Source: Escherichia coli
Lineage (GTDB): Bacteria > Pseudomonadota > Gammaproteobacteria > Enterobacterales > Enterobacteriaceae
DNA length: 64,000 bases
Reading direction: 5' to 3' (one strand)
Assembly: GCF_003334765.1 (NCBI RefSeq)
Contig: NZ_QOWT01000001.1
The translations under genes were made by a program, and so were the position numbers. Shown here in pieces: positions 4,754-64,000 of this stretch. The stretch's first letter is position 1. Every line of letters begins with the position of its first letter. The notes below the pieces were generated by a model. It saw only the letters and a program-made list of their open reading frames with translations. It was not told the origin of the DNA and made no database searches.

Positions 4754-5448
4754 CAGACATTCCCTGTTTCACCGTTTGGCAATGCACGTTCTGCAGCTGC
4801 TTCAGCACGGCGCTTTTTCATTCTTTCATCAATCAGGTATTTTCCTGCCAGCATCAGTCCCAGGCCAATAAATGCACCTGGTGGCAGCATCGCCAGCAGG
4901 AAAGGGGAGTCGGTGTGGAAAATCTCCACGCGTAATACTTTTGCCCAGCTACCTAACAGCGCATCTGCACCGTCAAACAATGTGCCATTGCCGATAATTT
5001 CGCGTAGTGAACCCAGCACGAACATGGCGCAGGTTGCGCCCATACCAATTGAAAAGCCGTCCAGTGCCGAAAGCGCCGGACCTTTTTTGGCGGCGAAGGC
5101 TTCAGCGCGGCCCACAACGATACAGTTAGTGACAATCAGCGGAATAAAAATCCCTAATGATTGATACAGGCCAAAGGCGTAGGCGTTGATCAGCATCTGT
5201 ACAGCGCTGACCACCGAGGCGATGATCATCACGTAAATGGGAATGCGGATCTCGGCTGGCGTCCAGTGACGCAGCGTCGAAATGGTCAGGTTGGTCAGCG
5301 TCAGTACCAGCGTAGTCGCAAGTCCTAAACCCAGAGCGTTAGTGGCAGTGGACGTGACCGCCAACAGAGGACAAAGGCCGAGCAACTGGACCAGCGCAGA
5401 GTTGTTTTTCCACAACCCCTGAACAATAACGTCTTTAATTTCGCTCAC
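4753..5448 (-). CDS. rsxE: Rsx/Rnf electron transport complex subunit E
   Basis: 231 aa polytopic membrane protein, [43 protein letters not shown]...; 1-nt overlap with nth. Confidence 0.9.
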
Positions 5449-5451
5449 GCT

Positions 5452-6072
5452 TTATTCTCCACAGGCAGGAAGTTGAGAAAGTTGTGCCGGTAACGTCTGA
5501 GCGTACAATCCGGCGCGTTTTACCGCATTAACCACCGCGCGGGGAGTAATCGTCGCGCCGGTGAACTGGTCGAAATCACCACCATCTTTCTTCACCGCCC
5601 AGTGCGCATCATCTGCACCACTGATTTTTTTACCCGCAAAATGGGTGATCCAGTCAGAAAGGCGCAGTTCGATTTTATCGCCAAGCCCTGGCGTTTCGTG
5701 GTGCTCTGTCACGCGCGTGCCAAGTACCGTGCCGTTAAAATCGGCTCCCACCAGCAGCTGAATCGCACCGGAATAGCCATCTGGCGCGGTTGCTTCCAGA
5801 ACGGCGGCTACCGGTTTGTCATCCTGTTTGGCGATGTAAACCCGATGCTCACCTTTACCTAACTCTGGCGCAGTTACCAGATAGCAACTCTGTGCCAGCG
5901 CATTGTTATAGCGTTCGGCTGGCAGCACCTGATCAAATAACGCCTTTTGTTGCAGACTGGCCTGTTCAGCAATCGTCGTTTTGGTCATCTGGTTGATGGC
6001 CGCAGTTAACCCTGTTGAACCCGCTGCAAATAGCGCCAACGTAATGCCGTGTTTTCGGATAGTTTTCAGCAT
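5452..6072 (-). CDS. rsxG: Rsx/Rnf electron transport complex subunit G
   Basis: 206 aa, N-terminal TM segment, recognised RnfG-type sequence; tightly spaced in the operon. Confidence 0.9.
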
Positions 6073-6075
6073 GGT

Positions 6076-7134
6076 TTACCCTTTGCGATGGCCGTAGACG
6101 CGCGGACGCGTGTAGTAATCGATCAGAGGAACCGTGATGTTCGCCAGCAGGACGGCAAAAGCCACGCCGTCAGGATAGCCGCCGAAACTGCGGATCAACC
6201 AGACTAATAAGCCCGCAAGCGCGCCGAAAATAAGACGACCACGATTGGTCGTAGAAGCGGTAACCGGGTCAGTCAAAATAAAGAATGCGCCGAGCATGGT
6301 CGCTCCAGACAGCAGATGAATTTGCGGTGCTGCCAGTGTTTCTGGTGAGAACAACCAGCCCAACATTGCGCATAACGCCAGCGTTACTAAGAAGCTGAGG
6401 GGAATATGCCAGCGAATCGCTTTCTGCCATAGCAACCATACGCCGCCAGCCAGCCAGGCGAGATTTACCCATTGCCAACCAGCGCCCGCCAGAATACCGC
6501 TGTAGATCGGATATTGCATAATCTGTTCAACCGAATGACCGGCACGGACAGAGGTTTTAAATGTATCCAGCGGTGTCGCCTGACTAATGCCATCAATACC
6601 TAAGCGTAGTGTGTTCATATCACCACCACTGGCGGTATGACCGCTAAAAATAACCTGGATGGCGTCGATAAAACCAGGGATGTTGACCGCAATTTCATGT
6701 GGCGGTAACCAGCTGGTCATCTGCACGGGGAAGGAGATCAGTAAGACCACATAACCAATCATTGCCGGATTAAACGGGTTTTGTCCCAGACCGCCATACA
6801 ACTGTTTAGCGATGATCACCGCAAACACCGTACCCAGCACGACCATCCACCATGGCGCGAGGGGGGGAATACTTACCGCCAGCAATAAGCCTGTCAGCAA
6901 TGCTGAGTTATCTTTCAACGTTGCGGCTACCGACTGCTTGCGTAGTTTGAGTACGAGAGCTTCGGCTAACAGAGCACTAACCGATGCCAACAGGATCTGA
7001 ACGAGAGTACCCCAACCAAAAAACCACAGTTGCGCTGCGATTCCTGGCACGGCTGCGAGCAACACCAACAGCATAATGCGCGATGTCTGGCGCTGGTTAT
7101 GGGTATAAGGGGAGCTAGCTATTCTGAATACCAT
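6076..7134 (-). CDS. rsxD: Rsx/Rnf electron transport complex subunit D
   Basis: 352 aa polytopic membrane protein, [42 protein letters not shown]... (RnfD/NqrB family). Confidence 0.9.
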
Positions 7135-9927
<2,793 letters not shown>

Positions 9928-15328: not shown

Positions 15329-16921
15329 TTATGCCTGGACAGTATGCATCAGACCGGCCATTTCATCTTTTACTGACTGAACTTGTGGCCCGATAACAAC
15401 CTGCAGGTTATGTTGATTAAGTTGTACTACGCCAATTGCCCGATTGTCCTTCAGTGCCTGCACATTAACAAGCGACATATCTTTCACAGACAAACGCAGA
15501 CGGGTAATGCAGTTATCGAGGCTGACAATATTGTCGGCACCGCCTAATGCTTCGAGGATTGCAGGAACGTTGTAACCTGATTTACCCGGCGCACCGGCAA
15601 CGGCTTTTTCGATTGAGCTGGCAACTTCGCTATCGCGCCCCGGGGTTTTCAGATTGAAGCGGGTGATAGCGAAACGGAAGATGACGTAGTAAACGACAAA
15701 CCAGATTGCCGCCACCACTGGCACCATGTACCACTTGGTTGACAGACCATGCAAAATACCGAACACCACGAAGTCGATGATATTGCCGTCGGTATTACCG
15801 ATGGTGACGCCGAGCACAGACATGACGGTGAAGCCGAGGCCGGTTAACAGCGCGTGGATGACATACAGAACTGGCGCTACGAACAGGAACAGGAATTCCA
15901 GCGGTTCGGTAGTGCCGCCAACGACGCAGGCGATCAGGCCAGAAATCAGCAGACCTTTAATTTTATGGCGATTTTCCGGGCGCGCGCAGTGATACATAGC
16001 TAACGCTGCACCTGGCAGACCGCCGAGAAACGCAGGCATTTTACCTTGCGAAAGGAAACGCGTGGCGCTTTCAGAAAAACCGTGAGTGGTCGGGCAACTC
16101 AATTGCGCCTGGAAGATGGTCAGTGCGCCGCTGACGGTTTGACCGCAGACTTCCTGCGTGCCGCCTGCGTCGGTAAAGCGAATTAATGCCACCAGAATGT
16201 GATGCAGACCAAACGGCAACAGCAGACGTTCACCGGTACCAAACAGCATCGGTCCGAAATCACCCGCGCTGTTTATCATATGGCCCAAGCCGCTAATACC
16301 CATGGCGAAAATCGGCCAGACTAATGGAATCACCAGGCCGACAAGGCCCATCACCAGCGAGGAGATAATTGGTACGAAGCGCGTACCGCCGAAGAATGCC
16401 AGCGCATCCGGCAGGCGGATATTATGGAAACGCTCATGCAGCATCCAGACGATAATACCGGCGATCACCGCACCGAGGATCCCGGTATCGATCGACTGGA
16501 TCCCAAGAATGCTCTGGATGTTATTGGCTTTCAGAACCGCGGCATCCGTGGTTGGCAGAATGCCTTTATTGGTCAACCAGAAGTTTACCGCGAGGTTCAT
16601 TACCGCATAACCGATGAAGCCAGCGAATGCCGCTACGCCTTTATTTTCGCGTGCCAGGCCCAGCGGGATGGCGATACAGAACATGACAGGCAGGAAACTA
16701 AAAGCAAACGAGCCAATCTTACTCATCCAGGTAAAGATAGCCTGCAACACGGGGTTGCCCAGGACCGGGATCAGGGTTATGACATCATGGCTGCTAAGAG
16801 AACTACCAATGCCGAGCATAATGCCGCAGAACGACAATAATGCCACGGGTAACATGAAGGTTTTGCCTAACTGCTGGAAGAACTCCCACAGCGTGACTTT
16901 CGGTGCTGTTTTCGCCGTCAT
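15329..16921 (-). CDS. malX: PTS maltose/glucose-family EIICB component MalX
   Basis: ORF track gives 651 aa; trimmed to MTAKTAPKVTLWEFFQQLGKTFMLPVALLSF... (530 aa); EIIC membrane domain plus C-terminal EIIB with ITRLRL cysteine loop region. Confidence 0.9.
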   Translation of the reverse strand: MTAKTAPKVTLWEFFQQLGKTFMLPVALLSFCGIMLGIGSSLSSHDVITLIPVLGNPVLQAIFTWMSKIGSFAFSFLPVMFCIAIPLGLARENKGVAAFAGFIGYAVMNLAVNFWLTNKGILPTTDAAVLKANNIQSILGIQSIDTGILGAVIAGIIVWMLHERFHNIRLPDALAFFGGTRFVPIISSLVMGLVGLVIPLVWPIFAMGISGLGHMINSAGDFGPMLFGTGERLLLPFGLHHILVALIRFTDAGGTQEVCGQTVSGALTIFQAQLSCPTTHGFSESATRFLSQGKMPAFLGGLPGAALAMYHCARPENRHKIKGLLISGLIACVVGGTTEPLEFLFLFVAPVLYVIHALLTGLGFTVMSVLGVTIGNTDGNIIDFVVFGILHGLSTKWYMVPVVAAIWFVVYYVIFRFAITRFNLKTPGRDSEVASSIEKAVAGAPGKSGYNVPAILEALGGADNIVSLDNCITRLRLSVKDMSLVNVQALKDNRAIGVVQLNQHNLQVVIGPQVQSVKDEMAGLMHTVQA

Positions 16922-16940
16922 AAAACGACTCCTCGTAGAT

Positions 16941-18124
<1,184 letters not shown>

Positions 18125-18235
18125 TCCTCTCTTTATCTGCTATACCTGGTAGTGTCCTTTCCTCAAGGTTAATGATAAAAAATGTGGCACACAGGCGGTG
18201 CCTTTTATTTTTACTGAAGTTCACAGGAGGTTTAT

Positions 18236-19003
18236 GTGTTTAATTCTGACAACCTGAGACTCGACGGAAAATGCGCCATCATCACAGGTGCGGGTGCAGG
18301 TATTGGTAAAGAAATCGCCATTACATTCGCGACAGCTGGCGCATCTGTGGTGGTCAGTGATATTAACGCCGACGCAGCTAACCATGTTGTAGACGAAATT
18401 CAACAACTGGGTGGTCAGGCATTTGCCTGCCGTTGTGATATTACTTCCGAACAGGAACTCTCTGCACTGGCAGACTTTGCTATCAGTAAGCTGGGTAAAG
18501 TTGATATTCTGGTTAACAACGCCGGTGGCGGTGGACCTAAACCGTTTGATATGCCAATGGCGGATTTTCGCCGTGCTTATGAACTGAATGTGTTTTCTTT
18601 TTTCCATCTGTCACAACTTGTTGCGCCAGAAATGGAAAAAAATGGCGGTGGCGTTATTCTGACCATCACTTCTATGGCGGCAGAAAATAAAAATATAAAC
18701 ATGACTTCCTATGCATCATCTAAAGCTGCGGCCAGTCATCTGGTCAGAAATATGGCGTTTGACCTGGGTGAAAAAAATATTCGGGTAAATGGCATTGCGC
18801 CGGGGGCAATATTAACCGATGCCCTGAAATCCGTTATTACACCAGAAATTGAACAAAAAATGTTACAGCACACGCCGATCAGACGTCTGGGCCAACCGCA
18901 AGATATTGCTAACGCAGCGCTGTTCCTTTGCTCGCCTGCTGCGAGCTGGGTAAGCGGACAAATTCTCACCGTCTCCGGTGGTGGGGTACAGGAGCTCAAT
19001 TAA
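18236..19003 (+). CDS. hdhA: 7-alpha-hydroxysteroid dehydrogenase (SDR family)
   Basis: 255 aa, GTG start, MFNSDNLRLDGKCAIITGAGAGIGKEIA..., SDR TGxxxGxG and YxxxK motifs. Confidence 0.92.
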   Translation: MFNSDNLRLDGKCAIITGAGAGIGKEIAITFATAGASVVVSDINADAANHVVDEIQQLGGQAFACRCDITSEQELSALADFAISKLGKVDILVNNAGGGGPKPFDMPMADFRRAYELNVFSFFHLSQLVAPEMEKNGGGVILTITSMAAENKNINMTSYASSKAAASHLVRNMAFDLGEKNIRVNGIAPGAILTDALKSVITPEIEQKMLQHTPIRRLGQPQDIANAALFLCSPAASWVSGQILTVSGGGVQELN

Positions 19004-19223
19004 TACACTAACGGACCGGTAAACAACCGTGCGTGTTGTTTACCGGGATAAACTCATCAACGTCTCTGCTAAATAACTGGCAGCCAAATCACGGCTATTG
19101 GTTAACCAATTTCAGAGTGAAAAGTATACGAATAGAGTGTGCCTTCGCACTATTCAACAGCAATGATAGGCGCTCACCTGACAACGCGGTAAACTAGTTA
19201 TTCACGCTAACTATAATGGTTTA

Positions 19224-19814
19224 ATGATGGATAACATGCAGACTGAAGCACAACCGACACGGACCCGGATCCTCAATGCTGCCAGAGAGATTTTTTCAGA
19301 AAATGGATTTCACAGTGCCTCGATGAAAGCCATCTGTAAATCTTGCGCCATTAGTCCCGGGACGCTCTATCACCATTTCATCTCCAAAGAAGCCTTGATT
19401 CAGGCGATTATCTTACAGGACCAGGAGAGGGCGCTGGCCCGTTTCCGGGAACCGATTGAAGGGATTCATTTCGTTGACTATATGGTCGAGTCCATTGTCT
19501 CTCTCACCCATGAAGCCTTTGGACAACGGGCGCTGGTGGTTGAAATTATGGCGGAAGGGATGCGTAACCCACAGGTCGCCGCCATGCTTAAAAATAAGCA
19601 TATGACGATCACGGAATTTGTTGCCCAGCGGATGCGTGATGCCCAGCAAAAAGGCGAGATAAGCCCAGACATCAACACGGCAATGACTTCACGTTTACTG
19701 CTGGATCTGACCTACGGTGTACTGGCCGATATCGAAGCGGAAGACCTGGCGCGTGAAGCGTCGTTTGCTCAGGGATTACGCGCGATGATTGGCGGTATCT
19801 TAACCGCATCCTGA
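19224..19814 (+). CDS. uidR: TetR-family repressor of the glucuronide (uid) operon
   Basis: 196 aa, TetR-type HTH TRTRILNAAREIFSENGFHSASMKAICKSCAISPGTLYHHF. Confidence 0.92.
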   Translation: MMDNMQTEAQPTRTRILNAAREIFSENGFHSASMKAICKSCAISPGTLYHHFISKEALIQAIILQDQERALARFREPIEGIHFVDYMVESIVSLTHEAFGQRALVVEIMAEGMRNPQVAAMLKNKHMTITEFVAQRMRDAQQKGEISPDINTAMTSRLLLDLTYGVLADIEAEDLAREASFAQGLRAMIGGILTAS

Positions 19815-20128
19815 TTCTCTCTCTTTTTCGGCGGGCTGGTGATAACTGTGCCCGCGTTTCATATCGTAATTTCTCTGTGCAAAAATTATCCTTCCCGGCT
19901 TCGGAGAATTCCCCCCAAAATATTCACTGTAGCCATATGTCATGAGAGTTTATCGTTCCCAATACGCTCGAACGAACGTTCGGTTGCTTATTTTATGGCT
20001 TCTGTCAACGCTGTTTTAAAGATTAATGCGATCTATATCACGCTGTGGGTATTGCAGTTTTTGGTTTTTTGATCGCGGTGTCAGTTCTTTTTATTTCCAT
20101 TTCTCTTCCATGGGTTTCTCACAGATAA

Positions 20129-20158
20129 CTGTGTGCAACACAGAATTGGTTAACTAAT
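20129..20158. promoter_or_regulatory. candidate operator inverted repeats in the uidA promoter region
   Basis: Inverted repeat ctgtgt-gca-acacag followed by aattggttaactaat, about 50-75 bp upstream of the uidA ATG; assignment to UidR/UxuR is inference. Confidence 0.3.
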
Positions 20159-20204
20159 CAGATTAAAGGTTGACCAGTATTATTATCTTAATGAGGAGTC
20201 CCTT

Positions 20205-21485
20205 ATGTTACGTCCTGTAGAAACCCCAACCCGTGAAATCAAAAAACTCGACGGCCTGTGGGCATTCAGTCTGAATCGCGAAAACTGTGGAATTGATCAG
20301 CGTTGGTGGGAAAGCGCGTTACAAGAAAGCCGGGCAATTGCTGTGCCAGGCAGTTTTAACGATCAGTTCGCCGATGCAGATATTCGTAATTATGCGGGCA
20401 ACGTCTGGTATCAGCGCGAAGTCTTTATACCGAAAGGTTGGGCAGGCCAGCGTATCGTGCTGCGTTTCGATGCGGTCACTCATTACGGCAAAGTGTGGGT
20501 CAATAATCAGGAAGTGATGGAGCATCAGGGCGGCTATACGCCATTTGAAGCCGATGTCACGCCGTATGTTATTGCCGGGAAAAGTGTACGTATCACCGTT
20601 TGTGTGAACAACGAACTGAACTGGCAGACTATCCCGCCGGGAATGGTGATTACCGACGAAAACGGCAAGAAAAAGCAGTCTTACTTCCATGATTTCTTTA
20701 ACTATGCCGGGATCCATCGCAGCGTAATGCTCTACACCACGCCGAACACCTGGGTGGACGATATCACCGTGGTGACGCATGTCGCGCAAGACTGTAACCA
20801 CGCGTCTGTTGACTGGCAGGTGGTGGCCAATGGTGATGTCAGCGTTGAACTGCGTGATGCGGATCAACAGGTGGTTGCAACTGGACAAGGCACTAGCGGG
20901 ACTTTGCAAGTGGTGAATCCGCACCTCTGGCAACCGGGTGAAGGTTATCTCTATGAACTGTGCGTCACAGCCAAAAGCCAGACAGAGTGTGATATCTACC
21001 CGCTTCGCGTCGGCATCCGGTCAGTGGCAGTGAAGGGCGAACAGTTCCTGATTAACCACAAACCGTTCTACTTTACTGGCTTTGGTCGTCATGAAGATGC
21101 GGACTTGCGTGGCAAAGGATTCGATAACGTGCTGATGGTGCACGACCACGCATTAATGGACTGGATTGGGGCCAACTCCTACCGTACCTCGCATTACCCT
21201 TACGCTGAAGAGATGCTCGACTGGGCAGATGAACATGGCATCGTGGTGATTGATGAAACTGCTGCTGTCGGCTTTAACCTCTCTTTAGGCATTGGTTTCG
21301 AAGCGGGCAACAAGCCGAAAGAACTGTACAGCGAAGAGGCAGTCAACGGGGAAACTCAGCAAGCGCACTCTTGCTACCGCGATGACCCAACAACCACAAT
21401 CCCGCGCCCGTCTGGGCGCGGCTCGTGGGATTGCCACTTCATTGACCTTTGTCTGCCTGGCATTTCTGATAGGACCGAGCATTAA
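20205..21485 (+). pseudogene. uidA: beta-glucuronidase, 3'-truncated by an internal deletion; reading frame runs out of frame into uidB sequence
   Basis: Translation matches GH2 beta-glucuronidase from MLRPVETPTREIKKLDGLWAFSL... through ...[14 protein letters not shown] (about residue 388 of 603), then continues as unrelated [10 protein letters not shown]... to a stop at 21485. Confidence 0.85.
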
Positions 21486-22347
21486 GAACTCCAGCCCGGA
21501 AGAGATGGTGTCGGTATACCATTTCTGGACAATTGTGCTGGCGATTGCCGGAATGGTGCTTTACTTCATCTGCTTCAAATCGACGCGTGAGAATGTGGTA
21601 CGTATCGTTGCGCAGCCGTCATTGAATATCAGTCTGCAAACCCTGAAACGGAATCGCCCGCTGTTTATGTTGTGCATCGGTGCGCTGTGTGTGCTGATTT
21701 CGACCTTTGCGGTCAGCGCCTCGTCGTTGTTCTACGTGCGCTATGTGTTAAATGATACCGGGCTGTTCACTGTGCTGGTACTGGTGCAAAACCTGGTTGG
21801 TACTGTGGCATCGGCACCGCTGGTGCCGGGGATGGTCGCGAGGATCGGTAAAAAGAATACCTTCCTGATTGGCGCTTTGCTGGGAACCTGCGGTTATCTG
21901 CTGTTCTTCTGGGTTTCCGTCTGGTCACTGCCGGTGGCGTTGGTTGCGTTGGCCATCGCTTCAATTGGTCAGGGCGTTACCATGACCGTGATGTGGGCGC
22001 TGGAAGCTGATACCGTAGAATACGGTGAATACCTGACCGGCGTGCGAATTGAAGGGCTCACCTATTCACTATTCTCATTTACCCGTAAATGCGGTCAGGC
22101 AATCGGAGGTTCAATTCCTGCCTTTATTTTGGGGTTAAGCGGATATATCGCCAATCAGGTGCAAACGCCGGAAGTTATTATGGGCATCCGCACATCAATT
22201 GCCTTAGTACCTTGCGGATTTATGCTACTGGCATTCGTTATTATCTGGTTTTATCCGCTCACGGATAAAAAATTCAAAGAAATCGTGGTTGAAATTGATA
22301 ATCGTAAAAAAGTGCAGCAGCAATTAATCAGCGATATCACTAATTAA
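21369..22347 (+). pseudogene. uidB: glucuronide permease (GPH/MFS family), 5'-truncated remnant lacking its own start
   Basis: From the junction the frame encodes ...[35 protein letters not shown]... to ...[13 protein letters not shown], about 325 C-terminal residues of a roughly 457-aa transporter; the ORF-track N-terminus ([10 protein letters not shown]...) comes from uidA DNA in another frame. Confidence 0.85.
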
Positions 22348-22385
22348 TATTCAATAAAAATAATCAGAACATCAAAGGTGCAACT

Positions 22386-23651
22386 ATGAGAAAAATAGTG
22401 GCCATGGCCGTTATTTGCCTGACGGCTGCCTCTGGCCTTACCTCTGCTTATGCGGCGCAACTGGCTGACGATGAAGCGGGACTACGCATCAGACTGAAAA
22501 ACGAATTGCGCAGGGCGGATAAGCCCAGTGCTGGCGCGGGAAGAGATATTTACGCATGGGTACAGGGAGGATTGCTCGATTTCAATAGTGGTTATTATTC
22601 CAATATTATTGGCGTTGAAGGCGGGGCGTATTATGTTTATAAATTAGGTGCTCGTGCTGATATGAGTACCCGGTGGTATCTTGATGGTGATAAAAGTTTT
22701 GGCTTTGCCCTGGGGGCAGTAAAAATAAAACCCAGTGAAAATAGCCTGCTTAAATTAGGTCGCTTCGGGACGGATTATAGTTATGGTAGCTTACCTTATC
22801 GTATTCCGTTAATGGCTGGCAGTTCGCAACGTACATTACCGACAGTTTCTGAAGGAGCATTAGGTTATTGGGCTTTAACACCAAATATTGATCTGTGGGG
22901 AATGTGGCGTTCACGAGTATTTTTATGGACTGATTCAACAACCGGTATTCGTGATGAAGGGGTGTATAACAGCCAGACGGGAAAATACGATAAACATCGC
23001 GCACGTTCTTTTTTAGCCGCCAGTTGGCATGATGATACCAGTCGCTATTCTCTGGGGGCATCGGTACAGAAAGATGTTTCCAATCAGATACAAAGTATTC
23101 TCGAGAAAAGCATACCGCTCGACCCGAATTATACGTTGAAAGGGGAGTTGCTCGGCTTTTACGCGCAGCTCGAAGGTTTAAGTCGTAATACCAGCCAGCC
23201 CAATGAAACGGCGTTGGTTAGTGGACAATTGACCTGGAATGCGCCGTGGGGAAGTGTATTTGGCAGTGGTGGTTATTTGCGCCATGCAATGAATGGTGCC
23301 GTGGTGGATACCGACATTGGCTATCCCTTTTCATTAAGTCTTGATCGTAACCGTGAAGGAATGCAGTCCTGGCAATTGGGCGTCAACTATCGTTTAACGC
23401 CGCAATTTACGCTGACATTTGCACCGATTGTGACTCGCGGCTATGAATCCAGTAAACGAGATGTGCGGATTGAAGGCACGGGTATCTTAGGTGGTATGAA
23501 CTATCGGGTCAGCGAAGGGCCGTTACAAGGGATGAATTTCTTTCTTGCTGCCGATAAAGGGCGGGAAAAGCGCGATGGCAGTACGCTGGGCGATCGCCTG
23601 AATTACTGGGATGTGAAAATGAGTATTCAGTATGACTTTATGCTGAAGTAA
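22386..23651 (+). CDS. uidC: outer-membrane glucuronide porin-like protein UidC
   Basis: 421 aa, signal peptide MRKIVAMAVICLTAASGLTSAYAAQ, beta-barrel-like composition, C-terminal ...QYDFMLK. Confidence 0.9.
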   Translation: MRKIVAMAVICLTAASGLTSAYAAQLADDEAGLRIRLKNELRRADKPSAGAGRDIYAWVQGGLLDFNSGYYSNIIGVEGGAYYVYKLGARADMSTRWYLDGDKSFGFALGAVKIKPSENSLLKLGRFGTDYSYGSLPYRIPLMAGSSQRTLPTVSEGALGYWALTPNIDLWGMWRSRVFLWTDSTTGIRDEGVYNSQTGKYDKHRARSFLAASWHDDTSRYSLGASVQKDVSNQIQSILEKSIPLDPNYTLKGELLGFYAQLEGLSRNTSQPNETALVSGQLTWNAPWGSVFGSGGYLRHAMNGAVVDTDIGYPFSLSLDRNREGMQSWQLGVNYRLTPQFTLTFAPIVTRGYESSKRDVRIEGTGILGGMNYRVSEGPLQGMNFFLAADKGREKRDGSTLGDRLNYWDVKMSIQYDFMLK

Positions 23652-23658
23652 AAAATAA

Positions 23659-23686
23659 CGCCGGAGAGAAAAATCTCCGGCGTTTC
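23659..23686 (+). terminator. intrinsic terminator downstream of uidC
   Basis: Hairpin cgccggagag-aaaaa-tctccggcg followed by ttt, 8 bp after the uidC stop. Confidence 0.55.
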
Positions 23687-23715
23687 AGATTGTTGACAAA
23701 GTGCGCGTTTTTTAT

Positions 23716-23812
23716 GCCGGATGCGGCGTAAACGCCTTATCCAGCCTACAAAAACTCATAAATTCAAAGTGTTGCAGGAAAAGGTAGGCCTGATAAGCGT
23801 AGCGCATCAGGC
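23716..23812. repeat. REP/BIME element (two inverted REP copies)
   Basis: gccggatgcggcgtaaacgccttatccagcctac and taggcctgataagcgtagcgcatcaggc match the E. coli REP consensus, in opposite orientations. Confidence 0.8.
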
Positions 23813-23832
23813 AATCTCTGGTTTGTTTTCAG

Positions 23833-23862
23833 ATGAAAACGCCGGAGTGAAAATTCTCCGGC
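23833..23862 (-). terminator. intrinsic terminator downstream of ydgA
   Basis: Hairpin cgccggag-tgaaaatt-ctccggcg, flanked by T-runs on both strands. Confidence 0.5.
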
Positions 23863-23876
23863 GTTTTGGCCGTGAA

Positions 23877-25385
23877 TTACTGCTGCGGAATTGCCGGTAC
23901 AGCCGGAACGTTAAGAGCTGGCATCGCAAACATGCCAACAAAATCTTCTAACGACATTTTCTGCCCATTTAACGTTATCTGACCGTTAGCATATTGCAGG
24001 CTGGTGGTGATGGTATTGTCCTGCAAGGTGGTCAGACGGAACATCTGCCCCATTGCTGATGCACCTTCAACTTGCTGTTTCGCCAGTTTTTTCGCTTGAT
24101 CTTCCTGATAACCTTCCAGCTTCGCTACCTGAGTCATAAACTCAGTTGCCATATCCACCGGAATGGTCAGTTTCGCATCCAGAGATTTAACCGAACGATC
24201 TACTTCCTGCGCCAGCGTTTGCGGCGCTTCTTTAGTCGTTGCCGGATCTTTCAGGAACAGCGACAGATTCAGGGCACTTTCACCCTGACTGTTTTTCCAG
24301 CTTAGCGGCGCGATAGTAATCACCGGATCGCCTTTCAGCATCAGCGGCAGGGCGCTAAAGAAGGCTTCCGTCACTTTCTCCTGATAAAGTTCGGGGTTGT
24401 TGGCAATTTCTGGCTGTGCCAGCAGCGCCTGAGTTTGCGCGTTATATTGCTGGCTAAACTGATGCCAGGCTTCACCATCAATCTGGCCGACTTTTAAAGT
24501 CAGCTTGCCGCTGCCCAGATCCTGATTCTGTACCTTCAGGCTGTTTAGCGAGTAATCCAGTTGGCTATTGATCGTTTTACCGTCATTGACCAGATCCGAT
24601 TTACAGCTGATCTCCATGCCTTCCAGCAGTGCCAGTTCTTTGCCTTCCACTGAAATGGTCATTTTTTCCAGTGACAGTTTTTGATTTCCTACACGCTCAC
24701 CAAAACTTGCCAGCGTGCTGGAACCGTCGGTTTTCAGATTATTAAAGGTCAACTGCACTTTCTGGTTGTATTCGTTAACTGCGTCTATCCGACCACTTTG
24801 CGCCTCCCCGGAAAGGGAGATGGCTTTGCCGTCTCTGTCAGCATTTAACTGGAACTCGCCGCCGCTAAAGGCGACTTTTTCATCCTTTTGCTCGTAATTC
24901 AGTGGCTTGAGCGAAATATCGGAACTGGAATCACCGCTGTAACCAATGCGCGAGTTAATCTCAAAAGGCGTTTCACCTTTTGCCATATCAAACAGTGGTT
25001 TGCTTACTTCGTTATTAACCAGCGTGGTTTGAATTGATGCCATCGACGGGATCAGGTTCAGTTTTTTAAGCTGGGCAAGCGGGAAGGGACCATGATCAAC
25101 CGATTCGTTGAAGATGACGCTCTGACCGCTTTTAATCCACGGATTTTCTTTCCCGGCAATGGGTTTCACCAACAGTTGCAACTGGCTGCTGAATACGCCG
25201 CGATGATAGTTTTGATAACTCACTTCCAGGTTGGATTCAGGAGCTGTCAGTTTGAGTTGCGCGTTCGCCTGCGCGACCATGTCTTCGAGATGGGTTTCAA
25301 TCTTCTTGCCTGTATACCATGCGCCGCCTGTCCAGACTACGCCTAGCGCAACAATGACGCCTACCGCTACCAGCGATTTATTCAT
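23877..25385 (-). CDS. ydgA: DUF945-family periplasmic/inner-membrane-anchored protein YdgA
   Basis: 502 aa, N-terminal signal/anchor MNKSLVAVGVIVALGVVWTGGAWYTGKK, no catalytic motifs recognised. Confidence 0.85.
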   Translation of the reverse strand: MNKSLVAVGVIVALGVVWTGGAWYTGKKIETHLEDMVAQANAQLKLTAPESNLEVSYQNYHRGVFSSQLQLLVKPIAGKENPWIKSGQSVIFNESVDHGPFPLAQLKKLNLIPSMASIQTTLVNNEVSKPLFDMAKGETPFEINSRIGYSGDSSSDISLKPLNYEQKDEKVAFSGGEFQLNADRDGKAISLSGEAQSGRIDAVNEYNQKVQLTFNNLKTDGSSTLASFGERVGNQKLSLEKMTISVEGKELALLEGMEISCKSDLVNDGKTINSQLDYSLNSLKVQNQDLGSGKLTLKVGQIDGEAWHQFSQQYNAQTQALLAQPEIANNPELYQEKVTEAFFSALPLMLKGDPVITIAPLSWKNSQGESALNLSLFLKDPATTKEAPQTLAQEVDRSVKSLDAKLTIPVDMATEFMTQVAKLEGYQEDQAKKLAKQQVEGASAMGQMFRLTTLQDNTITTSLQYANGQITLNGQKMSLEDFVGMFAMPALNVPAVPAIPQQ

Positions 25386-25485
25386 AATGATTATCCATAA
25401 AATGAAATCAGGCGGACTGGCCGCCTGAAGGTGTTATAAGCCTTTAATAAGCTTAGCAAGAGATGTTAATTTTTTCAGTAAGCTC

Positions 25486-26661
25486 TTACAGCTTGTTGTA
25501 AACACGCGCTAAACGGCCGTGGCCTTTGACAGTCACCGGTGATTCGTTGGCGGCAATAAACGCTGATTCACCCGGTTTAAGCTGTAACTGCTGAGAACCT
25601 TTCCACAACGTTGCATCGCCTTCGACGCAGAACAAAATGGCGGCACTCTGCTGGCTAATGGTGGTTTCTTTATCACTAAGGTCATGCAGCGAGAAGGCAA
25701 AATCATCCACTGGAATCGGGAAGTCCAGTTCTGCACCTTGTTTCACCGGCTGGGTCAACAACTGGTTAGCCGGTTTGGCTTCGAATTTCACATTGGCAAC
25801 CAGTTCCGGAATATCAATGTATTTAGGCGTCAGACCCGCACGCAGCACGTTATCGGAGTTTGCCATCACTTCCAGCGCCACGCCTTGCAGGTAAGCGTGC
25901 GGTGTTTCAGCGAACAGGAACATCGCTTCGCCAGGGTTCAATTTCACCACATTCAGCAATAGCGGGGAGAACAGACCGCTGTCTTCCGGGTAAAATTCAG
26001 AAATTAAACGAATCGTTTGCCACGGTTCACCCTGCTGGCTATCGAGGGCCGATTTTAAAATCGCCAGCGCGCGGGATTTTTCTTCACCCTGCATATTCAA
26101 CAGGCTGGCGAACAGTTCGCTTAAACGTTCGGCATCAGGCTGTTGTAAAAAGTGAGCAATCGCCGGATGTGCACCTGCGACCGGCTGGAGTAGGGAGACA
26201 ATCTCGGAAAATTCACGAAACGCGTTCATCGCAAGGAAAGGCGTCAGCGCAAAAACCAGCTCCGGCTTGTGGTTAGGATCTTTATAGTTACGCTCGGCGG
26301 CATCCATCGGGATACCTGCGGCATTTTCTTTGGCAAAACCGATTTCAGAATTGTGTTTGTTTGGATGAACCTGAATGGAGAGTGGCTGTGCTGCGCATAA
26401 TACTTTGAACAGGAAAGGCAGTTCGCCAAAGCGTTTGGCAACGGCCTCTCCGAGCAGAGTCGATTTATCACTCTCAATCACATCACGCAGTGAAACGATA
26501 TCTCCGGCGGCATTCTGCACTCGTGAACTGCTTTTCGGATGTGCGCCCATCCACAGCTCGGCCATCGGCTGGCTGGACGGATTTTCCATACCATAAAGTT
26601 CAGTCAACGCCGTTTTGCTGCCCCAGGCATAGTTTTGCACTGAGTTAATGAGTTTTTGCAT
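25486..26661 (-). CDS. manA: mannose-6-phosphate isomerase (type I PMI)
   Basis: ORF track gives 417 aa; trimmed to MQKLINSVQNYAWGSKTALTELYGMENPSSQPMAELWMGAHPK... (391 aa). Confidence 0.92.
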   Translation of the reverse strand: MQKLINSVQNYAWGSKTALTELYGMENPSSQPMAELWMGAHPKSSSRVQNAAGDIVSLRDVIESDKSTLLGEAVAKRFGELPFLFKVLCAAQPLSIQVHPNKHNSEIGFAKENAAGIPMDAAERNYKDPNHKPELVFALTPFLAMNAFREFSEIVSLLQPVAGAHPAIAHFLQQPDAERLSELFASLLNMQGEEKSRALAILKSALDSQQGEPWQTIRLISEFYPEDSGLFSPLLLNVVKLNPGEAMFLFAETPHAYLQGVALEVMANSDNVLRAGLTPKYIDIPELVANVKFEAKPANQLLTQPVKQGAELDFPIPVDDFAFSLHDLSDKETTISQQSAAILFCVEGDATLWKGSQQLQLKPGESAFIAANESPVTVKGHGRLARVYNKL

Positions 26662-26859
26662 GATCAATCCCTGTTTTAATGTGGAAATTAATCCCACTAT
26701 TAAAGCAAGAATCCTACGGGAAGTAACCTGGAGCCGCAAAAAGTCGTACTAGTCTCAGTTTTTGTTAAAAAAGTGTGTAGGATATTGTTACTCGCTTTTA
26801 ACAGGGCAACGGAACACCCGCCCAGAGCATAACCAAACCAGGCAGTAAGTGAGAGAACA

Positions 26860-28506
26860 ATGTCAAACAAACCCTTTCATTATCAGGCTCCTTTTCCACT
26901 CAAAAAAGATGATACTGAGTATTACCTGCTAACCAGCGAACACGTTAGCGTATCTGAATTTGAAGGGCAGGAGATTTTGAAAGTCGCACTCGAAGCGTTA
27001 ACTCTGTTGGCGCGCCAGGCGTTTCATGATGCGTCGTTCATGCTGCGTCCGGCGCACCAACAACAGGTGGCCGACATTCTGCGTGACCCGGAGGCCAGCG
27101 AAAATGATAAATATGTGGCGCTGCAATTCCTGCGTAACTCCGACATCGCGGCGAAAGGCGTTCTGCCAACCTGTCAGGATACCGGCACCGCGATTATTGT
27201 TGGTAAAAAAGGGCAGCGTGTATGGACCGGTGGTGGTGATGAAGCGGCGCTGGCGCGCGGTGTCTATAACACTTATATCGAAGATAATCTGCGCTACTCG
27301 CAAAACGCGCCGCTGGATATGTATAAAGAAGTGAATACCGGCACCAATCTGCCAGCGCAGATCGATCTTTATGCCGTTGATGGCGACGAATACAAATTCC
27401 TCTGTATCGCCAAAGGTGGTGGTTCGGCAAACAAGACGTATCTCTATCAGGAAACCAAAGCGTTACTGACGCCGGGGAAACTGAAAAATTACCTGGTTGA
27501 GAAGATGCGCACGCTGGGTACGGCGGCCTGTCCTCCGTATCATATTGCGTTCGTTATTGGTGGAACTTCTGCAGAAACGAACCTTAAAACGGTGAAACTG
27601 GCTTCCGCGAAATACTATGATGAACTGCCAACGGAAGGGAATGAGCACGGTCAGGCGTTCCGCGATGTGGAACTGGAAAAAGAATTGCTGATCGAAGCGC
27701 AAAATCTTGGTCTGGGTGCGCAGTTTGGTGGTAAATACTTCGCTCACGACATCCGCGTGATTCGCCTGCCACGTCACGGCGCATCCTGCCCGGTCGGTAT
27801 GGGCGTCTCCTGCTCTGCTGACCGTAATATCAAAGCGAAGATCAACCGTCAGGGGATCTGGATCGAAAAACTGGAACATAATCCAGGCAAATATATCCCG
27901 GAAGAGCTGCGCAAAGCGGGAGAAGGCGAAGCGGTGCGCGTTGACCTTAACCGTCCGATGAAAGAGATCCTCGCACAGTTGTCGCAGTATCCCGTTTCTA
28001 CACGCTTATCGCTTAACGGCACGATTATCGTCGGTCGTGATATTGCTCACGCCAAACTGAAAGAGCGGATGGATAACGGTGAAGGGCTGCCGCAGTACAT
28101 CAAAGATCATCCGATTTACTACGCGGGTCCGGCCAAAACGCCGGAAGGTTATGCCTCCGGTTCTCTTGGCCCAACGACCGCCGGACGGATGGATTCTTAT
28201 GTCGATCAACTGCAAGCGCAGGGCGGAAGTATGATCATGCTGGCGAAAGGCAACCGCAGCCAGCAGGTGACGGATGCCTGTAAAAAACACGGCGGCTTCT
28301 ACCTTGGCAGTATCGGTGGTCCGGCCGCTGTATTGGCGCAGGGAAGTATTAAGAGCCTGGAATGTGTTGAATATCCGGAACTGGGAATGGAAGCCATCTG
28401 GAAAATTGAAGTGGAAGATTTCCCGGCGTTTATCCTTGTGGATGATAAAGGAAATGACTTCTTCCAGCAGATACAACTCACACAATGCACCCGCTGTGTG
28501 AAATAA
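26860..28506 (+). CDS. fumA: class I fumarate hydratase (Fe-S)
   Basis: 548 aa, [42 protein letters not shown]...; assigned fumA rather than fumB from the adjacent fumC. Confidence 0.92.
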
Positions 28507-62528: not shown

Positions 62529-63809
62529 TTAATTTTTCATTGCTTCGTTATGGGGCATGGTTGGGGCAAACTCGCTTAACTGTGTATTTAACAAAGCTAC
62601 CTGTGCATTATTGTTTTCAGACATCCATTTTCCGTATACCTGAAATACCATTTGCGCATCTGCATGGCCCATCTGGTTTGCTATAAATGCCGGGTTAGCA
62701 CCAGCTGTCAGCGACCAGCAGGCATAAGTATGTCTCGACTGATATGATTTTCGATGGCGGAGTCCGGCACGTTTTATCGCTGCGTCCCACATCTGCCTTA
62801 TTGAGTCAACGGTAAAATGGTCACCATAATTTTTTACTCTCGCTGACACTTCAGGTTGAAAAACAAAGGTGCATTTTTGTTTTTCTGTTCTGCCATACTC
62901 TCTGAGGTGAACATCAATGATATGCTCTTTGCTCAGTCTCGTTAATGTCATCTGACTCCGGAGAGCGTCGATTGCTGGCTTAATAAGATGAATGACCCGA
63001 TTGGTTCCCGCCTGTGTTTTTGGTACCGTGAAACGGTCTTTTGCTAAATTTCTCCTGATCATCATTGTTCCATTTTTCAGATCTATGTCCTCCCATCCAA
63101 GTGCACACAGCTCACCAGGGCGAACTCCAGTATAAACAGAAACACACCATAAATTTTTTGCTTGCTGATTTCTGCACGCATCGATAAGACGGATAAATTC
63201 TTCCCGCGAAAGAGGATCCGGAATGGTTCTTGATTCCTTTAATGGCGAGATCCCCTTAAACGGATTATCTGCCAGGTAACCGTTATCAACACCAAACTGG
63301 AACACGGCGTTAAGATTTGTCATGTAATTATTTACAGTTACAGCCGATCTCCCTGGTTGTGTAACAATATAGTTACTTTTGGGGATCTGGTATCCAGTCA
63401 GTAACTCTTTACGAACCTCCAGTAATTTTTCTTTATTAATCGATGAGGCAAGATTTTTTTCACCGATTATGCTCAGGATATTTTTGATGACGGCACGGTA
63501 TGTGTTGAGTGATGTTTTGGCGACTTCAGTTTCTTTCAGTGCCAGAAATTTTTCAGCCAGTTCTTTTATGGTTAAATCTTGTCGGGCCTCACCAAATTTT
63601 TCCAGATTGCGTGAGGAGGGAAACTGTTTTGCATAGTCGAAAACACCAGTTTTTATTGCGTAACAAACAGAGGAGCGTAGTTCACCTGCAACGCGCCTGT
63701 TTTTTGCTGTGTCAGGAACCCCCAGATTTTCCCTGACTCTTACGTCTTTATAAACAAACCAGATACGTAATTTCCCTCCATGGTTTTCCACGCCTGTCGG
63801 ATATTTCAT
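62529..63809 (-). CDS. intQ: phage tyrosine integrase (site-specific recombinase)
   Basis: ORF track gives 431 aa; probable start MKYPTGVENHGGKLRIWF... (426 aa); C-terminal catalytic region with R-H-T-Y-A box, GH and QVYGKW tyrosine; symbol assigned by position. Confidence 0.8.
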   Translation of the reverse strand: MKYPTGVENHGGKLRIWFVYKDVRVRENLGVPDTAKNRRVAGELRSSVCYAIKTGVFDYAKQFPSSRNLEKFGEARQDLTIKELAEKFLALKETEVAKTSLNTYRAVIKNILSIIGEKNLASSINKEKLLEVRKELLTGYQIPKSNYIVTQPGRSAVTVNNYMTNLNAVFQFGVDNGYLADNPFKGISPLKESRTIPDPLSREEFIRLIDACRNQQAKNLWCVSVYTGVRPGELCALGWEDIDLKNGTMMIRRNLAKDRFTVPKTQAGTNRVIHLIKPAIDALRSQMTLTRLSKEHIIDVHLREYGRTEKQKCTFVFQPEVSARVKNYGDHFTVDSIRQMWDAAIKRAGLRHRKSYQSRHTYACWSLTAGANPAFIANQMGHADAQMVFQVYGKWMSENNNAQVALLNTQLSEFAPTMPHNEAMKN

Positions 63810-63843
63810 TTCAACTTCTCTCATTAGTTAGTGTGGCTTTTAG

Positions 63844-64000
63844 TCAAGTAAGATGACGTCTTGGTCTCGCTGATGCCTGGCGCTCAATCCAGCGATCAAT
63901 TTCTTCCAGGTTGTAAAAGCATGGACTGTTATCCCATGGCATACCGTCATGAGCGACATGCTTATATTCCCTTCCTTCCATAAACGATTTTTCCCGGGCC
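63844..64000 (-). CDS. excisionase-like protein (lambda Xis family), partial; N-terminus beyond the window end
   Basis: Minus-strand translation ...AREKSFMEGREYKHVAHDGMPWDNSPCFYNLEEIDRWIERQASARPRRHLT*; the EGREY segment resembles the DGREY region of lambda Xis; sits immediately upstream of int on the same strand. Confidence 0.5.
   Translation of the reverse strand, partial: AREKSFMEGREYKHVAHDGMPWDNSPCFYNLEEIDRWIERQASARPRRHLT

Follow-up and report, generated by a model that had tools for sequence, protein, structure and literature searches.

The uidR-uidABC (gusR-gusABC) operon of Escherichia coli K-12 and its control region are said to have been described by Blanco et al. in 1985, by Jefferson et al. 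in 1986 and by Little et al. in 2018. In the E. coli β-glucuronidase (GUS) the catalytic residues are Glu413 (acid/base), Tyr468 and Glu504 (nucleophile). Two operators for the repressor GusR (UidR), O1 and O2, are located upstream of gusA, and promoters under GusR control should respond only in cells provided with both GusB and GusR (PMC9881133). Both uidA and uidR belong to the regulon of UxuR, which co-represses uidA (PMC9369180, PMC10016265); uidR is named among the regulon members in the latter work (PMC10016265). The uxuA/gntP region and the one upstream of uxuR are also controlled by UxuR, and in genomic SELEX performed with UxuR alone the gntP/uxuA site was the only one recovered (PMC5934670).

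Natural strains with a defective uidA are also on record. In O157:H7, which is β-glucuronidase-negative, a broken uidA stands behind an intact control region and UidR is the same as in K-12 (PMC6256406). That lesion, unlike the one described here, is a small frameshift in uidA which leaves uidB intact and constitutes a lineage-wide marker, and the O157:H7 control region shares about 93% identity with the one analyzed here. Strains ERP001 (NZ_CP063214.1) and EC50 (NZ_CP056073.1) each carry an independent natural deletion, in ERP001 of uidA-uidB and in EC50 reaching into the 5′ end of uidB, accompanied by the K-12 version of UidR (WP_000969092.1) and by a uidC annotated as full-length. The endpoints differ in both cases from those reported below: ERP001 keeps a 550-amino acid ORF derived from UidA, whereas EC50 has lost all of uidA and retains only 67 bp of the control region.

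In this work we have analyzed the uid locus in a stretch of E. coli DNA of 64,000 nucleotides, referred to below as the window. We consider it highly probable (about 0.88) that the locus is an ordinary uid module in which one recent, private deletion of 1,039 bp has killed both the enzyme and the permease, that the intact regulators have simply not decayed, and that the operon is probably stuck at its basal level of expression. The control region itself is already known and is textbook material; what is new is only a previously unseen null allele.

The uid neighbourhood has the order malX-malI-hdhA-uidR-uidA-uidB-uidC-ydgA-manA-fumB and belongs to the E. coli chromosome. Positions 16200..27200 of the window were aligned with K-12 MG1655 (locus L001), giving two collinear blocks; apart from the deletion between them the hdhA-uidR-uidA-uidB-uidC synteny is kept, both with K-12, where the same order continues into ydgA, and with strain H3. 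Five substitutions distinguish the window from K-12 over the 11 kb aligned (positions 16940, 20274, 21436, 24605 and 26990), and none of them is found in uidR, in the 390-bp uidR-uidA spacer or in the 220-bp hdhA-uidR spacer. The latter is identical to that of MG1655, and UidR is 100% identical to its K-12 counterpart, with a Pfam TetR_N domain at residues 16-62 (E 7.5e-18) followed by a TetR C-terminal domain. The uidR-uidA spacer matches MG1655 at 390 of 390 positions. The intactness of uidR and of this control region, as claimed in an earlier note on this DNA with exact coordinates, is thus borne out, and no promoter mutation relative to a functional reference, the observation which that note had named as refuting, was found on alignment to MG1655. 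Judged from its sequence, the unit is the E. coli uid (gus) regulatory module in its normal form, as present in functional K-12, and comprises uidR with the spacer in front of it and the promoter/operator region of uidA.

Table 1. Features of the uid locus (window coordinates) and the corresponding deletion regions of two other strains
Feature	Position	Strand	Remarks
Palindrome ATTGGTTAACCAAT	19097..19110		Perfect, 14 bp; hdhA-uidR spacer, ~115 bp upstream of uidR start; putative UxuR-type operator
uidR (gusR)	19224..19814	+	Full-length; 196-aa TetR-family repressor of the uid operon
uidR-uidA spacer (uidA control region)	19815..20204	+	390 bp; uidA start at 20205
Palindrome CGAACGAACGTTCG	19969..19982		Contains the perfect 10-mer CGAACGTTCG; candidate distal operator
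Inverted repeat CACAG-ATAA-CTGTG	20120..20133		Overlaps CTGTGT-GCA-ACACAG; extends outside 20129..20158
Inverted repeat CTGTGT-GCA-ACACAG	20129..20143		Perfect 6-bp arms
Palindrome ATTGGTTAACTAAT	20145..20158		Imperfect, 14 bp, 6/7 pairs; 47 bp upstream of uidA ATG; putative UxuR-type box
Shine-Dalgarno GAGGAG	20193..20198	+	6 nt before uidA ATG; read from sequence; invariant in 9 strains
uidA′ fusion ORF	20205..21485	+	426 codons: 388 native UidA residues (through 21368) and 38 out-of-frame uidB residues, then stop
Deletion junction	21369..21370		uidA nt 1165 joined to uidB nt 397, out of frame
uidB remnant	21370..22347	+	Codons 133-457 of glucuronide permease; lacks its own start codon and ribosome-binding site
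uidC (gusC)	22386..23651	+	Intact outer-membrane glucuronide uptake porin, 421 aa, identical to K-12
ERP001 deletion region	L015 1486..4000
EC50 deletion region	L016 3001..3737

The damage to uidA and uidB results from a single deletion of 1,039 bp spanning the boundary of the two genes. The disruption of both reported in the earlier note therefore holds as far as their loss of function is concerned, but it comes from one event and not from two separate lesions. The missing reference sequence corresponds to positions 5171..6209 of the MG1655 locus L001, that is to nucleotides 1166-1812 of uidA and 1-396 of uidB, genes which overlap by 4 nt. One spontaneous deletion would have taken the 3′ third of uidA together with the 5′ 396 nt of uidB and joined what remained of the two genes in different reading frames. 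The junction at 21369|21370 displays no scar, inserted DNA, microhomology, FRT site, marker or restriction site, and no repeats flank the endpoints. The engineered uidA(ΔMluI) allele was considered as a candidate and rejected, as the MluI sites lie away from the endpoints and no insert is present. A G+C-rich hairpin with an 8-bp stem (CCGCGCCC-GTCT-GGGCGCGG) is located within uidB at 21402..21421, 32 nt downstream of the junction.

The truncated UidA (UidA′) aligns to residues 1-388 of the E. coli β-glucuronidase structures (3K46 and others) and retains the sugar-binding and immunoglobulin-like domains, while its match to the GH2 TIM-barrel model (Pfam PF02836) ends at position 110 of 302. Glu413, Tyr468 and Glu504 are all within the deleted segment. 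Lacking the complete GH2 catalytic domain, UidA′ is predicted to have no β-glucuronidase activity, and as a partial TIM barrel extended by 38 unrelated residues it is likely to be unstable. The remnant of uidB matches positions 133-457 of the glucuronide transporter family NF007353 (NCBIfam) and equals residues 133-457 of K-12 UidB except for A155T; the in-frame ATG/GTG candidates in it have no obvious Shine-Dalgarno sequence. With the native start and the first 132 codons deleted, the 457-amino acid permease UidB, a member of the GPH family, is lost as a functional protein. Two of the five substitutions relative to K-12 fall into the damaged genes, namely D24N in UidA (window position 20274) and A155T in UidB (21436). 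Both are common to relatives with an intact operon, e.g. AF58 and H3, so they arose before the deletion and have nothing to do with the loss of function. UidC gives a full-length match to NF008479 (860 bits versus the cutoff of 510); lying downstream of about 900 nt of untranslated RNA, uidC may suffer from polarity. The picture of a preserved regulatory half accompanied by lost catalytic and transport functions is accordingly correct for the regulators, but too broad for transport: only the enzyme and the inner-membrane permease are gone and uidC is intact.

The uidR-uidA spacer was found in 5,420 of the 5,426 complete E. coli genomes, in 3,348 of these at only 90-95% identity. Its variability was judged among nine diverse E. 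coli lineages with spacer identities of 92-100%. The uidA-proximal part of approximately 215 bp (19990..20204) is almost invariant among them, and nearly all the differences are located in the first ~175 bp on the uidR side (19815 to ~19990). Within E. coli this half (19815..19990) is unusually variable, the substitutions in it being clustered and accompanied by small indels. Scanning of the spacer for the sigma-70 consensus gave no good match on the + strand and promoter hexamers were not placed; such a result fits an activator-dependent uidA promoter without proving one. No structured RNA was found in the spacer in an Rfam search at E ≤ 1, and folding of the palindrome region as DNA gave an unremarkable result (z = -1.6).

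The inverted repeats previously pointed out at 20129..20158 are confirmed as two elements, 20129..20143 and 20145..20158, both identical to K-12. The overlapping repeats at 20120..20143 are invariant in nine of nine strains, as is the ATTGGTTAACTAAT palindrome next to them. The palindrome in the hdhA-uidR spacer is conserved in eight of nine diverse strains, and the distal one at 19969..19982 varies at arm position 19976 in two of nine, which points to a weaker constraint than on the proximal repeats. Single repeats of this kind are not significant, at least one with 6-bp arms being present in 35% of first-order Markov simulations of 390 bp; four 14-mers with at least 6/7 pairs in 390 bp are unusual (simulated mean 0.5, with 0.35% of simulations reaching 4). 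The 14-mer ATTGGTTAACYAAT has only two sites in the 64-kb window, one upstream of uidA and the other upstream of uidR (expected number 0.01). The copy upstream of uidR is a perfect palindrome and is near-identical to the uidA-proximal one. Their common TTGGT-N2-ACCAA core occurs at 19098..19109 without substitutions and at 20146..20157 with one, and it recurs in the K-12 uxuA/gntP spacer, where the site TTGGTTAACCAC is matched by the core of 20145..20158, and upstream of uxuR. Three further matches to this 12-mer core with no more than one substitution are scattered elsewhere in the 64 kb, which makes it weak evidence by itself.

On the grounds of motif similarity and of the literature on UxuR and GusR, we assign these elements to the two repressors. 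The CACAG/CTGTG repeats at 20120..20143 are likely to constitute the UidR (GusR) operator region and are put forward as a candidate for it, and the 14-mer present at both uidA and uidR is a putative UxuR-type box. The pairing of the 14-mer palindromes points to a common regulator of uidR and uidA, probably UxuR.

The age of the deletion is decisive for the reading of the intact regulators. When compared with strain H3 (NZ_CP028732.1), which has an intact operon, the window differs by seven substitutions in 64 kb and by the deletion, and other strains with an intact operon match the deletion flanks perfectly. A 301-bp probe across the junction had no single-piece match among the 5,426 complete E. 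coli genomes and the 30-nt junction sequence was not found in metagenome contigs. Because of this small divergence from H3 and the absence of the junction from the genomes and contigs, the deletion is considered very recent and, as far as the searched collections show, private to the strain. With almost no divergence accumulated since the deletion, the regulators are expected to be intact under neutrality, without any appeal to selection: they are undecayed neighbours of a young deletion, not a conserved "half-system". In general, nothing can be learned from an intact regulator beside a dead gene without regard to the age of the lesion. Whereas 5,420 genomes possess the control region, only 5,331 match either half of the junction probe, and the difference of about 89 genomes hints that loss of uidA/uidB by deletion recurs; boundary deletions have arisen independently in E. 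coli at least in the strain of the window, in ERP001 and in EC50.

The same uniqueness of the junction, clean and without a counterpart in either the 5,426 complete genomes or the metagenome contigs, might be expected of a deletion that is not natural, either an engineered GUS-negative allele of a laboratory or production strain or an error of assembly or consensus. We regard such an origin as very unlikely. Neither a scar nor an FRT site, marker or restriction site marks the junction, the nearest MluI sites are elsewhere, and the endpoints are arbitrary within the two genes and out of frame, unlike those of a designed deletion; an assembly error would have had no flanking repeats to collapse, and the deletions of ERP001 and EC50 demonstrate that natural events do occur at this boundary. 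It is still less probable that uidR and/or the remainder consisting of the promoter and uidC has been kept by selection for a role beyond glucuronide catabolism, such as an action of UidR on other genes or of UidC as a general porin. A UidR identical to that of K-12 in four independent uidA-defective backgrounds (the window, ERP001, EC50 and O157:H7) and an intact uidC in all three deletion strains speak in favor of this explanation, but three other cases of unknown age are too few to demonstrate purifying selection, and with only seven substitutions in 64 kb relative to a strain with an intact operon, neutral persistence fully explains the intactness. We know of no additional UidR target. The most far-reaching version, to which we give the smallest chance of all, holds that uidR, the uidA promoter and uidC are retained as still useful, with UidR sensing glucuronides on behalf of other targets or with the promoter driving UidC as a stand-alone porin, and that the boundary deletions reflect selection for the loss of glucuronide import and hydrolysis with the rest kept.

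For the preferred reading, a young deletion in an otherwise ordinary module, the present state of expression can be proposed as follows. UidR, and UxuR at the TTGGT-N2-ACCAA box, would still bind and keep the promoter repressed. Without UidB the efficient entry of glucuronides would be lost, and without UidA activity glucuronides would no longer be hydrolysed to glucuronate, the signal relieving repression by UxuR. The operon would probably remain at its basal level, yielding at most a little inactive UidA′ of 426 amino acids and some UidC. The uidA promoter is most likely permanently repressed or basal and not inducible, because the inducer must be inside the cell, the UidB permease is lost and glucuronate is not released. 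Free external glucuronate or leakage of the inducer could lead to partial derepression, and entry of glucuronides by another route could permit induction.

The earlier note had expected the truncated UidA fragment to be still expressed under glucuronide induction, which seems doubtful with UidB gone and no glucuronate arising from glucuronides. A promoter that is still inducible by glucuronides, with truncated UidA accumulating upon induction, would agree with the unchanged state of all cis elements and of UidR, with the intact outer-membrane porin UidC and with the intact ribosome-binding site and start of uidA. We nevertheless consider it unlikely, since the inner-membrane permease, reported to be needed for induction (PMC9881133), is destroyed, no glucuronate is released from glucuronides to relieve UxuR, and a partial TIM barrel with an unrelated tail is likely to be unstable.

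In practical terms, the strain should score as β-glucuronidase-negative in MUG and X-Gluc tests, and a uidA PCR may remain positive where it targets the 5′ two-thirds of the gene.

Several other features of the window were recorded. In the gap between uidC and the convergent ydgA a strong terminator-like hairpin with an 11-bp stem occupies 23657..23684, and the adjoining 23705..23746 (minus strand) gives a sub-threshold Rfam match to naRNA4 (RF02564; 37 bits versus the gathering score of 59.5). Within rsxC, a 96-bp unit is repeated in tandem at 7181..7702 (5.4 copies, 91% matches); this repetitive RsxC coding segment is present in H3 too. The right end of the window (62529..64000) carries a prophage-type site-specific integrase beside rspB (431-amino acid ORF, 62529..63824, minus strand), followed by what corresponds, according to the annotation of H3, to the start of an excisionase gene.
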